Origin: a virus
Taxonomy: Duplodnaviria; Heunggongvirae; Uroviricota; Caudoviricetes
Virus record (IMG/VR): IMGVR_UViG_2534682329_000010
Direction: 5' to 3' (one strand)
DNA: 37,934 bases
In this document: positions 33,001-37,934 of the stretch, piece by piece
Numbering within the stretch: position 1 is the stretch's first letter
Layout of the letters: every line of letters begins with the position of its first letter
Position numbers: made by a program

Positions 33001-36000
33001 CACCACTGGCGACCAGTTCTCTGGCGAGAGTGCTTATGTAATACCTTGATACACCGGTTTTAGCCTCCAGTGCCCGTAACGTCTCGCGACCGCTCAGACG
33101 TACAAGTTCAACAACCTGCCCTTTAATTTTTTCTCGCTCTTCTTGTGTAAAAATTTTTGCCATAAGCGCCTCCGGCAATCACTTTTCCGACACAATACGA
33201 CTGGAGGAATCAACAATCTGTCGAACAATATCCCGGTACTTGTTCAGCTCCCGCAGCGCGGCACAGACACGCTCCCACTTCTGGACATGATTCTTCGCCC
33301 GCCGCAGTTCGCGGTTTGCCATATGCAGCGATGGCAAAATCAAATCATCAGCTCGCGTTTCAGTAAACGATGGCAGCGACTGCACAATGTCCGCCACAGT
33401 TTCTGTTTTAATTTCTTCCAGTGTTACAGCTTCCTGTACTGGTAACGCAACGCCTGCTGGCTGAGGAAAGGCCTTACCATCAGTTTCCGCTACCGATGCT
33501 GCTTTCGGCTCTGCTGGTAAATTATCGCCCGGTATGCAGTAACGAAATTTACCGCCCTGATTTACGCGAATCAGACGACCTTTGCTGATTGCCATTGCCA
33601 GCGTTGAAGCCACTTTGCGGGATGTGGTACCGAACAGCGTAGCCAGTTCATCCGCCGTTTGTGGTCCACGTTGTTCAATCGTCGCAGTTAAATCGCTCTC
33701 TGAAATTTTCGCGACTGTTGCCGTGGTAGTTTCTTCCGGCAGTTCTGCCGGCGCTGGCTGCTCCTGCTGAACGTTGTTATCAGCCACACGCCAGGTGTTT
33801 ACGCTTTTATCAACGAAGCCAGACTTTTTCAGTTCCCACAGCTCGTTCAGCACTTCTTCACGGCTGATATCAAGTCGCGCAGCGAGTTCTACCGACGTGG
33901 CTTTTCCCATTGCTTTCAGTGCGTCAAAAACAGTCTCCATTAAAATTTCCTCCCGGTAAAATTACTTATCAACTCAAACAAAACCAGCCGCTTTCCGGCG
34001 TTCATATTCCTGTTTCAGCAACTCAATTGGCGTTGGCCCCGACGGGCGTTTGGGTGCCGCCAGTTGTCGCCGGACTGGCGGAACGCTCAGGCCGTTACCT
34101 ACATGCTTTGCCCATTTCGTCAGCTGCCGTTCTGCAAGCCGTTTTAATTCCCCTTCGGTCATCTGGCGCTCAATCCCCTTTGAACGCATCTCGAGGCAAA
34201 TGTGATACAGCACAGGCTGAGACCACGGGTACTTATCACTTCCGTCGTATCGCCAGGACTCATTGCGCCAGCGGCGGTACTCCTCCATCACAGCATCCAC
34301 CGTCAGACCGAATGGATTGGCTCCGCTTTCCGAAATCAGCGCCACAAACTCAGCCAGGTCCGGGGGCCATGTTTCACCCGCCCGGCAGCGGTCCATGCAC
34401 TGGCGGCAGACCTGCCGGATTTGCTGCTCAGTCATCGCACCAATCTGTGCAATCCAGAGCGTCGAAGGTGCGGCCCCGTTCTTCTGAGTCCAGCGGTTCG
34501 AATAAACCTCCCCCATGAGCTCCCACAGCTTCCACGCCGTTTCCGTCGCTGATAAATCCGTTTTCACGTTCCCACTGCTCACGTGCAGCCCGAATTTCCT
34601 GAACTGCCCGTGATGCGGTGCCACCTGGTGCTGCTGCATGGTTTACCCCCTTGCTGACTGGTTTAACCTGCGCCCTGACGTGATTTACGTGACGGGCGAA
34701 TTTCTGCTCCCACTGAATCTGCGTAAACACTTTCCTCTCCGCTGCCCAGTAGTCCCGGAAGGCGGCAAGTTCAGCAGGTGTAAATTCTGTCTCCGGCAAA
34801 GCCATCCCCCACAACGCAGCCCGTCGTCGAAAATCACGTGACGGATACCAGCTATCGGTCATCGGAAATTTCCCGATGGGTTCGCTCAGGCCTTCCAGGA
34901 ATACAGGGGGTGGTGCCTGTAACGACAAAACTTCCTGCTCACTGGTCGGAGCACTCTCGCGTGCGTTATGTGTGGGGTTTAGATCTTTGGATTCCTTTGG
35001 GTTCCGTGATCCGTTTTTGGGTGTCTTTGATGGAAAATTTGGGTGTCTTTGGTTATTTTCCATGCAGCTAAGAGTTCCGTTTTTGGGTCTGTTTTGTGCT
35101 GAAACATAACCATTTTCGGTACTGTTTTTATTAACAGCACCAATTTTACTCACCTTTAAAGACTCCCGTTTTTGGGTGTATTCAGGCTCGGCAACGCTTT
35201 CTTCTACACCGATAAGTCGGTACACCACGATTTGCTTTGTTCGGCCTTTTCTCTCACCGGTATCAACAATTAACCCAATCTCCATCAGGTGTCGTAAGCT
35301 GTCCTGCACAGTCTTTTTGTTCAGTTCCGTTACTTCTGCCAGTGCAGATACAGACGGGTATGCACACAAATCGGCACCGCACATATCAGCAAGCCAGGTC
35401 AATACTGACTTACTGGATGAACTGCCGGTTTTCACCTTTTTAGCCCATCGTAGTGCATCGATACTCATACGAACCCCTGGCAGACATTTGTTTATCTGCA
35501 AAGTAATATTGATATTGCTGACGATACGCATGCTTGAAAGCAATGGCTTTTTCTATAAGCTCGTCAGTCTCACGTTCCACAACAGATGGATCCGCAAAAA
35601 GCAGCCCGGACTCCACCACATCGCCATATTCTTTGTTTAACCCGGCGATCATGTACGTAATGCTTTTTCCATCAGTAATTTCACAATACAACCTGAAATC
35701 GCTGATCCGGATAGCCTCCATAATTGCCGGAATCAGCGCCGTGAATTTTTCCCGCTTATCCCTGGTATCAATAGCTTTCCATCGTTCGAATATCTTCACC
35801 CGGTTGACGCCCAGCGCCCGTTGATCAACCGCGCCATCATCAAACGTGACGCGTTGAACATCGATGTTCGGGCGTTCTTTCAGAGCCCAGAATGCTTCCG
35901 TGATTAATATCGTCGCCTGCTCCTGTGTCATTCCTGGTCGGCATACCCATGCATCCAGAGCCTCACGAGCCTGTTCAGGAGTGATTTTCATTGTTCAACC

Positions 36001-37934
36001 GCCCCGCCCGCTTTGCCTTACGATATTCGTCATAAACTTTGGGGTCGTACTGAAGTTCCCCGCCGGATGCCTCTTGCAGGCGGATCGCGCGACCTTCAGG
36101 AACCAATTCCCCCCATTGAGAAACAGCAGATGGATCAACACCAGCAGCTTTCGCTACTTTGGCTTTCGTCCCATAAAAATTAATTACGTCTGATTTAAAC
36201 ATCACCCCTCCAAAGTTGAGTTTTCTCAATAGTAATAACTAAAGGAATCTCAAGTCAAGGGTTATTAAGATATCTAAATATGAACGAGAAAACTTTAGGT
36301 CAACGAATTAGAGAAAGACGCAAACAGGTTGGTTTAAGTCAAAACGATTTAAGCAAAGCTGCTGGCGTATCTGGCTCATCAATTTCACTATGGGAAAGCG
36401 ACCATACAGCCCCGCGCGGGCAAAATTTGCATCGCCTGGCTGAGGTATTGCAATGTTCACCAACTTGGATACTATTTGGTGACGAGGATAAAACACCAGA
36501 TCCACCAGTTGCACTCAACAGCGCCTTAGACTTATCGGAAGATGAGTTGGAGATATTGCGATTGTATCGCGCACTTCCAAAATCAGAGCAGCAAGCACAA
36601 ATCAGCGAACTCCGTGCCCGCGTTGAGAATTTTAATCGCCTGTTCACCGAGCTACTAGAAGCTCGCAAACGTAACAAACATCAATAACCCCCTTCACAAA
36701 TTTTAAAGCCTTACATTTCAATGTATTGGCTTTATTTTGCATTAAATATTGAGTTTTCTCATTAAAAATTCTTGACCAATTTTAATGAGGAAACTAAATT
36801 ATCATCCATCAAGACACCGCACGGTGTTCTCAGCAAACAGTTCCGCTACCCCGGCGTTAAGGGGAAATGAGGTCAACATGGATACTATCGATCTTGGCAA
36901 CAACGAATCTCTGGTATGTGGCGTGTTTCCCAATCAGGACGGCACATTCACCGCCATGACGTATACCAAAAGCAAAACGTTTAAAACCGAAGCTGGCGCA
37001 CGTCGCTGGTTGGAAAGAAACTAAGGTGAGTGATATGGATTTCGACACAATCATGAAAAAGGCTTACGAAGAATACTTCGAAGGCCTTGCCGAAGGCGAA
37101 GAAGCTCTCAGCTTCAGTGAGTTTAAACAGGCGCTTTCCAGTTCGGCAAAATCTAACGGCTAACGGGGTTAAAGATGGAATTTAAAGATTTACCACTATC
37201 AATCCAGGAGATTGCAGCACAGACACTCCGTCAACGCCTGAACGAACTTGCATTGGAATCGGTAACGAAAAAAGACACTGATAATATAGCTCGTAATGTG
37301 CGCGATGCGTTTACCGGATTGTACTCTGTTTCGGTAACAAACAACCAGGATACTGAAGAAGCTGCAAAGCGGATTGCCTCGGCGATGGGTTTTTATGTCG
37401 AGGAAAAGTATTCAAAAAAAGAATTCTGGAAAATGGCCAAACGCATCGCAGAGCGAGGTGAAATGCTCTCTGCATCAGGGGATTCATTTTATAACGAAAA
37501 AACTGATAACTCCTGTTTGCGTGATTTGCTCTCGCTGCTTGATAAGTTCGGAATAATAATGACCGGCACTGCTCTGGCTGATTTCACTTATAGCGCAATT
37601 TGTCATAATGGAGAACCATGTCCGCCAGAATTAATAATCACCCCCGGCAATCATCCGAGGGTAAAAATACGAGCGATTCAGGAGCACTGGTTTAATCCAG
37701 TTCCACAAGACGAGGACGCGGTAAAACCTCTATAGGTCCCGTATAGCCTGACGCTCTTTTGACATTGAGAATTTTATTTAACTTGTCAGCCTGATACTGA
37801 CTTGGTTTCACAAATATCCCATCAAGTTTTGATATATGGAATACACCGTGTTTCGGGCAATCAAAAATATAATAACCATTCTTCTCTGAAAAATCAGACG
37901 AAGAATTACAGGCTGGGCATAGTTTTGTTGGCAT

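Follow-up and report, generated by a model that had tools for sequence, protein, structure and literature searches.

We suggest that the prophage in a 37,934-nt stretch of viral DNA (IMG/VR record IMGVR_UViG_2534682329_000010; hereafter, the window) is controlled by an immunity switch of the DicA/DicC type, built on a repressor that is not cleavable, with a homolog of Rem as its most likely antagonist and two homologs of the Gifsy-1 antirepressor AnrP as a second layer. We hold this reading to be probable. The window is an Escherichia coli lambdoid prophage that runs from the tail fibres to the immunity region and carries most of its genes on the minus strand; with replication genes, the late antiterminator gene Q, lysis genes and structural genes all present, it appears complete. 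An original prediction made from the sequence alone had placed a CI-like repressor with its Cro analogue at 35975-36687 and had proposed that antirepressors drive induction, and that interval does run from the gene for Cro across the operators to the end of the repressor gene.

The repressor gene (36280-36687, plus strand) encodes a DicA-family protein of 135 amino acids, the CI analogue of the switch, which consists of a P22 C2-like helix-turn-helix (HTH) domain and a helical C-terminal hairpin and lacks an S24 domain. Its open reading frame (ORF) cannot be extended upstream. A Pfam scan of the protein returned HTH families only (HTH_3, E = 1.2e-16) and no Peptidase_S24, and residues 1-72 resemble the DNA-binding domain of P22 C2 in the PDB (1adr, E = 2e-15, 48% identity). 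The AlphaFold2 model, obtained from a 31-sequence alignment with a predicted local distance difference test score (pLDDT) of 85.5, consists entirely of helices, with zero beta strands, and is laid out as a five-helix HTH, a proline-rich linker and a C-terminal hairpin of about 50 residues (helices 87-98 and 101-134). Searched with Foldseek against the PDB, this model matches the N-terminal domain of P22 C2 (TM 0.95) and, over the whole chain, SinR/SinI, DdrO and phage repressors from structures that include small antirepressors; no LexA/CI C-terminal domain is among the PDB matches. The Ala-Gly cleavage site of the linker and the Ser/Lys dyad are absent from the protein, its sole Ala-Gly (residues 28-29) lying within the HTH. 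Homologs number 179 across the Enterobacterales, and the best 120 of these 179 are nearly all of about 133-135 amino acids, with HTH families and no Peptidase_S24 among their recorded Pfam domains. An S24 peptidase in the repressor is ruled out by Pfam, the AlphaFold model, Foldseek and homolog architectures alike, and the predicted short HTH repressor without an autopeptidase is upheld on all these counts. Because the S24 domain is missing, the repressor is predicted to be immune to RecA-driven self-cleavage, so that derepression would require an antagonist protein, unless the bistable DicA/DicC switch flips stochastically.

Aligned over its full length with K-12 DicA, the repressor shows 56% identity. 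Its identity is 95.6% with the repressors of phages HannyBb and mEp460_ev081, 53% with that of PPompW and 28% with that of Gifsy-1 (E = 2e-10), with which it has an LP-E-E motif in common. In an alignment including K-12 DicA and the Gifsy-1 repressor, the C-terminal helical motif L..E.E.L.L...LP.SEQ ... NFN.LF.ELL.ARKR is shared with DicA and, more weakly, with the Gifsy repressors. By its sequence, the repressor is thus placed in the DicA/GfoR class of short lambdoid repressors without an autopeptidase. DicA and RacR have been listed as members of this class alongside the Gifsy repressors (PMC3121763). With the classical lambdoid switches the window shares an HTH homologous to that of P22 C2 and a three-part OR that separates the divergent genes for repressor and Cro, but lambda CI, P22 C2 and LexA carry an S24 C-terminal domain where the window repressor has its helical hairpin.

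The operator and promoter anatomy of the switch can be read directly from the sequence. In the 77-bp divergent control region, an OR-like operator region (36216-36278) holds three sites of the TTGAG-N4-CTCAA type at 36216-36229 (a perfect match), 36240-36253 and 36265-36278, spaced 24-25 bp apart. These sites overlap a pR-like promoter, TTGACT-18-TACTAT (36258-36229, minus strand), which reads into the cro gene. On the other side of the repressor gene, an OL-like region (36749-36800, plus strand) comprises two operators, at 36749-36762 and 36785-36798, that flank a pL-like promoter, TTGACC-17-TAAATT (36772-36800). This promoter drives an operon of ydfA (DUF1391; 36878-37024, plus strand), the first gene of the repressed leftward operon, and ydfB (37035-37163, plus strand), the second; in related loci dicB follows farther 3'. 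The operator half-sites vary with immunity type while the -35 hexamer AGTCAA is invariant, the pattern that would be expected of operators. The switch has the operator specificity of the mEp460_ev081 and HannyBb phages, and, because the half-sites differ, the window phage and the K-12 Qin prophage would be heteroimmune.

The Cro analogue (35975-36202, minus strand) is a 75-amino-acid protein of the DicC/P22_Cro family (P22_Cro, E = 5.4e-18; 65 bits against a cut-off of 30.2) with 70% identity to K-12 DicC. Its assignment as a YdaS was tried and dropped, the YdaS_toxin model giving 22.3 bits, under the cut-off of 30. The gene that directly follows cro encodes a YdaT family protein, the proposed CII analogue (35440-35991, minus strand; PF06254, 26.5 bits, cut-off 21), which shares 96% identity with YdaT from a locus resembling CP-933P, the prophage in which YdaT has been put forward as a CII analogue (PMC8630535, PMC9986795). 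Of the YdaS/YdaT-like pair that had been predicted to act as Cro and CII, the YdaT half is therefore backed by Pfam and by the CP-933P-like protein, but the YdaS half gives way to a Cro of the DicC/P22_Cro type. The published YdaT operator, TTGATTN6AATCAA, was not found in the immunity region; the only similar match, with two mismatches, lies at 33557 inside another gene and is at chance level.

Comparison with CP-933P PaaR2-YdaS-YdaT (PMC8630535, PMC9986795) places this arrangement in context. Both systems have the same O gene next to this near-identical YdaT, and a short non-cleavable repressor with a related C-terminal motif; they differ in that CP-933P carries PaaR2 and YdaS where the window has DicA and DicC types, in the paaA2-parE2 pair, which is absent here, and in Rem, which the CP-933P-like locus lacks. 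We note that this IMG/VR locus (4779-8041) joins a PaaR2-type repressor, PaaA2/ParE2-like genes and a YdaS-type Cro to O and a ydaT of the window type (96%). Evidently, the ydaT-O block has stayed constant while the immunity modules before it were exchanged.

The candidate cognate antirepressor is an 86-amino-acid Rem homolog (29875-30135, minus strand), 72% identical to K-12 Rem (b1561; E = 2e-41). The original prediction had overlooked it, although Rem is the best-documented antirepressor of DicA-type repressors: in K-12, Rem from Qin derepresses the DicA-controlled dicB promoter 165-fold, and it is the only protein shown to antagonise DicA there (PMC10448788). Rem homologs carry PF27490. 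The window gene sits in the nin region as it does in Qin, after hok/sok and a terminator and before DUF968/ydfU, rusA and Q, and the order hok, rem, ydfU, (rusA), Q is kept across the compared loci. Directly 5' of rem lie the hok/mok toxin gene (30356-30568, minus strand) and the sok antisense RNA (30506-30681, minus strand; Rfam, 120.7 bits), and the adjacency of hok and rem recurs in all seven aligned loci, including Qin, HannyBb, PPompW and a Rac-like phage. The region 5' of rem (30136-30287, minus strand) comprises the hok terminator (hairpin 30285-30272 and a T run), a promoter-like element, TTGAAG (30247-30242)-18-TAGAAT (30223-30218), and a leader; across seven aligned upstream regions the -10 element AATAGAAT is invariant and the leader of about 80 nt is kept. 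We also observe that this leader (30136-30220, minus strand), with its CCCC/GGGG hairpin, is conserved in the seven loci even where the -35 region has been replaced, and it may be a site of post-transcriptional control. No DicA-type operator was found near the rem promoter.

The distribution of Rem follows that of the repressor closely. Of 50,697 phage records, 15 encode Rem, and a full-length DicA-type repressor of the E. coli kind occurs in these 15 and in no others; mEp460_ev081 is known to retain both DicA and Rem (PMC10448788). Within a set of 80 IMG/VR loci sharing the O allele of the window, Rem is present in 33 of the 35 that have a DicA-type repressor and enough downstream DNA; Rem is absent from the single PaaR2/YdaS-type locus whose downstream DNA is long enough for the comparison. 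A scan of genome contigs for Rem relatives gave three loci only, too few to address rem regulation in other genera. The resemblance to the K-12 Qin system of DicA, DicC and Rem (PMC10448788) extends to the 135-residue length of the repressor, its C-terminal motif, the position of ydfA-ydfB after the repressor and the hok-rem-ydfU-Q context. Qin is a remnant, however, whereas the window prophage looks complete, and Qin, mEp460_ev081 and HannyBb all lack the two AnrP modules and the ArtAB toxin genes that the window contains.

The original prediction had also pointed to two ORF6N antirepressor-like genes elsewhere in the prophage. Both are present, both match phrog_2379 ("anti-repressor"), and both encode AnrP homologs, so that the label has experimental precedent in a Gifsy phage (PMC4825925). 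Copy A (186 amino acids; 1-561, plus strand) stands at the prophage end and copy B (187 amino acids; 26874-27437, minus strand; Pfam ORF6N, E = 9.9e-21) directly after Q, which copy A does not; the two are 80% identical to each other and 55-57% identical to Gifsy-1 AnrP (STM2616), copy B at 55%. The late antiterminator gene Q (27719-28114, minus strand; PF06530) lies immediately 5' of the isrK promoter of copy B. The riboregulated leader of that copy (27490-27714, minus strand) comprises a promoter, TTGACC (27714-27709)-18-TATATT (27690-27685), an IsrK small RNA with its terminator (27602-27678; Rfam, 74.3 bits against a gathering score of 50) and a C4-like antisense RNA (27490-27574; 76.3 bits against a gathering score of 45). 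It is homologous to the Gifsy-1 leader, with compensatory changes in the hairpin. An upstream ORF of 31 amino acids starts like Gifsy orf45 (MVG..GEPKGSPV) and ends at 27475, 20 nt before the first in-frame ATG, and at the ATGA of the anrP start only a 9-codon ORF ends. An interpretation of the region 5' of the ORF6N genes as a plain pR'/tR' late module serving ordinary late genes was overturned by the Rfam matches to isrK and C4 and by the Gifsy-1 literature.

The window begins exactly at the ATG of copy A, so the region upstream of that copy is outside it, and the comparison was made in the prophage of strain NY1601, a locus 99.3% identical. There the same promoter and isrK-C4 pair stand in front of copy A; the pair is found in Gifsy-1 as well. 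As separate observations, the copy A module lies at the prophage end, convergent with tail-fibre genes (3560-4000 of the NY1601 locus), and in NY1601 its neighbor is a fragment similar to the 3' portion of a tRNA gene, which is probably the attachment site.

In Gifsy-1, the isrK promoter reads partly past the IsrK terminator and gives a translationally silent orf45-anrP mRNA, IsrK acting in trans activates the translation of that mRNA, and expression of AnrP raises antQ-operon RNA and induces the prophage (PMC4825925). The window module agrees with Gifsy-1 isrK-orf45-anrP, a locus related to c4-icd-ant of P1/P7 immI, in its promoter after Q, its IsrK, its C4-like RNA and its ORF6N AnrP. It differs in being doubled, with the second module at the prophage end, and in that the small ORF of Gifsy-1 overlaps the start codon as ATGA. 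The presence of ORF6N does not follow from repressor type, because DicA-type phages occur without it and phages with CI-like repressors occur with it: HannyBb and mEp460_ev081, with the same repressor type as the window, and PPompW, a prophage record with a repressor 53% identical, have no ORF6N gene though Rem is present, while ORF6N homologs appear in 306 phage records, mostly of Shiga toxin (Stx) phages, among them PA28 with its 235-amino-acid CI-like repressor (PMC8136144). Gifsy SOS induction was, in addition, mapped to a small protein linked to dinI. These facts favor an accessory or amplifying role for AnrP over that of cognate inducer. From the placement of the copy B isrK promoter right behind Q, we infer that read-through at this copy would provide a Q-linked positive feedback; the action of Q on the isrK promoter is our own proposal and not a published one.

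The Gifsy prophages provide the precedent for induction without repressor cleavage. Their repressors, of the DicA/GfoR class, stay uncleaved and are inactivated by small antirepressors, whose genes follow the replication genes and are preceded by a LexA box and a dinI homolog (PMC3121763). With Gifsy-1, -2 and -3 (GfoR, GftR and GfhR) the window shares a short non-cleavable repressor and a distal antirepressor gene after the replication genes with a terminator 5' of it, and the gene order of Gifsy-1 matches that of the window, including the succession of Q, isrK and AnrP. What sets Gifsy-1 apart is a LexA box of 23.8 bits at the antirepressor position. We searched for such boxes by exact pattern and with a weight matrix derived from 24 E. 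coli boxes, on which genuine boxes score at least 12.9 bits and which recovers the Gifsy-1 box and that of phage phiES15 (24.4 bits). No LexA box turned up in front of any candidate antirepressor gene, the best scores being 2.4 bits for rem, -1.5 for anrP-B and -1.0 for anrP-A, so that the LexA-controlled arrangement of Gifsy is not reproduced; the seven aligned regions 5' of rem likewise lack a LexA box. Nor does the window contain a dinI homolog (tblastn with Gifsy-1 DinI) or, by homology search, a homolog of phiES15 gp51 or of the small antirepressor of Gifsy-1 LT2 (STM2621.1n). The likeness to Gifsy that had been predicted thus holds for the short repressor, the distal antirepressors and the AnrP precedent, but not for the LexA box, dinI and the small antirepressor. 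Because rem and both anrP genes lack a LexA box, DNA damage is coupled to the switch indirectly, if at all.

The only LexA-box-like site in the window, TACTGTTTTTATTAACAGCA (35120-35139), lies inside the O-like replication gene. At 20.7 bits it equals the mean of genuine E. coli boxes, and none of 200 shuffles reached 20 bits. It lies in AT-rich origin coding sequence, among CCGTTTTTGGGT iterons at approximately 35011, 35076 and 35166, and no convincing promoter was found beside it. The 16-bp core of the site does not vary among 80 related O alleles, an uninformative result given that these alleles are at least 95% identical, and the different O allele of HannyBb and mEp460_ev081 has no site above 14.5 bits. 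There is only a very slim chance that the site is functional in such a way that damage would act on origin firing or on an internal early promoter, with three antirepressors outside LexA control and with ArtAB then depending on a Rem trigger that is not SOS. Separately, phiES15, a Cronobacter phage induced by ultraviolet (UV) light, has a DicA-like repressor (45% identical), and its nin region contains a Rem-like ORF that had not been annotated (30% identity, pairwise E = 1e-6). In this phage, a perfect LexA box stands 5' of the 79-amino-acid gp51 ORF, with a UmuD-like gene at the genome end (regions 10182-10478 and 39118-39397). The gp51 protein is a possible LexA-controlled antirepressor.

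Put together, these elements would work as follows. The repressor, as a dimer or oligomer held by its C-terminal hairpin, would bind the TTGAG-N4-CTCAA-like operators, as homology to P22 C2 and DicA predicts; from the three sites over the rightward promoter it would shut off the dicC-like cro, ydaT, O and P, and from the two over the leftward promoter ydfA and ydfB and, farther on, dicB. Rem, expressed from its own promoter after the hok terminator, would neutralise the repressor in the manner of K-12 Rem. With some Q present, transcription past the IsrK terminator would increase AnrP, and AnrP, if the Gifsy-1 work carries over, would feed back on early transcription and lock the prophage into the lytic course.

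Several points weigh against such a scheme. Relief of this repressor by Rem or by the AnrP proteins of the window is a prediction, and the cognate pairing of Rem with the repressor is assumed. Two of the 35 DicA-type loci have no Rem within 7 kb. The window Rem is an allele of the PPompW type (96.5% identical) and its repressor one of the mEp460 type; more generally, the three kinds of Rem (window-type, K-12-type and a variant at 78%) and of DicA (window-, PPompW- and K-12-type) occur in all combinations, a shuffling that could mean either broad cross-reactivity or the lack of a strict partnership. The Rem profile has no detectable resemblance to the small antirepressor of Gifsy-1 LT2 (STM2621.1n; hhalign probability 0.3%, nothing by BLASTP), and the AlphaFold model of Rem has low confidence (pLDDT 62.5). 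As for the second layer, the upstream coupling ORF of copy B differs from Gifsy-1 orf45.

The most direct challenge to Rem as the main antagonist is that the ORF6N/AnrP proteins would themselves be the primary inducers upon a signal, Rem being irrelevant or redundant. Gifsy-1 AnrP, a homolog of both copies, when expressed induces Gifsy-1 independently of the isrK locus (PMC4825925), the Gifsy repressors are of the same class as the window repressor (PMC3121763), both copies are under the isrK/C4 control typical of antirepressor genes (compare P1 c4-icd-ant), and in Salmonella IsrK rises within minutes of peroxide exposure (PMC4825925). Yet HannyBb and mEp460_ev081 have this repressor type and no ORF6N gene, ORF6N homologs reside mostly in Stx phages, PA28 with its CI-like repressor included, and genetics traced the SOS induction of Gifsy not to AnrP but to the small antirepressor next to dinI (PMC3121763); a gene placed after Q, behind a terminator and on a silent mRNA, moreover, fits amplification better than initiation. 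We therefore regard AnrP as a rather unlikely primary inducer. The general idea of induction by antirepressors stands, having been published for both Gifsy and DicA (PMC3121763, PMC10448788), but the ORF6N proteins are probably not its main agents.

Two further explanations dispense with a dedicated antirepressor or place the signal elsewhere. It is quite improbable, in our judgement, that no antirepressor is needed because the DicA/DicC switch is bistable and flips spontaneously or under stress, an unstable or diluted repressor giving way as DicC stops its synthesis. In K-12 about 1% of cells do derepress dicBp without Rem, and urea and heat act in a manner that depends on DicC and not on Rem (PMC10448788); the PaaR2/YdaS/YdaT switch of CP-933P is bistable and unresponsive to mitomycin C (PMC8630535); and a purely stochastic or stress-driven flip would also suit candidate antirepressor genes that all lack an upstream LexA box. 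Against this, Rem is kept together with DicA-type repressors in phages and prophages, which argues that it is used, and the derepression by K-12 Rem is large (165-fold, PMC10448788). Coupling to SOS from elsewhere, either through a LexA-controlled antirepressor supplied in trans by a co-resident prophage or through the LexA-like site in O, strikes us as very improbable. Antirepressors acting in trans do cross-react between Gifsy prophages (PMC3121763), the O-gene site is strong and its core invariant, and phiES15, inducible by UV, combines a DicA-like repressor with a perfect LexA box 5' of a small ORF. That site, however, is coding sequence in an AT-rich origin with no convincing promoter at its flanks, its invariance among alleles so nearly identical proves nothing, the HannyBb/mEp460_ev081 allele does without it, and neither phiES15 gp51 nor the small Gifsy antirepressor has a homolog in the window. 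Rem acting on the DicA-type repressor, with AnrP as a second layer, remains the reading that we favor.

The late operon deserves mention for what it carries. Pertussis-like genes for an ArtAB-type AB5 toxin (24706-25458 and 25436-25849, minus strand) encode an A subunit similar to E. coli ArtA (PDB 4z9c, E = 9e-98) and a B subunit similar to Pertussis_S2S3; they lie 3' of Q, isrK and AnrP, in the slot that Shiga toxin occupies in Stx phages. Between copy B and the toxin genes there is a 239-amino-acid ORF of unknown function (25912-26631, minus strand; phrog_1521, without a Pfam match), preceded by a terminator and a TTGACT promoter-like sequence. The nearest annotated relative of the window prophage is found in strain NY1601, where it is flanked by zinT and by a tRNA-Ser gene close to mtfA. 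In that prophage and in an E. albertii relative, a LexA box of 23.9 bits marks the start of a DNA-methyltransferase gene 3' of Q (17701-17720 and 5299-5318 of the respective loci), and this methyltransferase segment is replaced in the window by AnrP, the unknown ORF and ArtAB.

The mechanism proposed here has already been published for this family, and literature searches on mEp460 induction and on Rem regulation since 2023 gave nothing beyond PMC10448788; apart from the value of the prophage for studying Rem, the finding adds no new principle. The natural signal of Rem is an acknowledged open question (PMC10448788), and an apparently intact prophage with Rem would be a better test system than the defective Qin. 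Because its late operon carries ArtAB in place of Shiga toxin, the switch matters for toxin expression, and its flip decides both ArtAB expression and the spread of the phage. Since the repressor is predicted not to cleave itself and the candidate antirepressor genes lack a LexA box, DNA-damaging antibiotics might not induce this prophage as they induce Stx phages.

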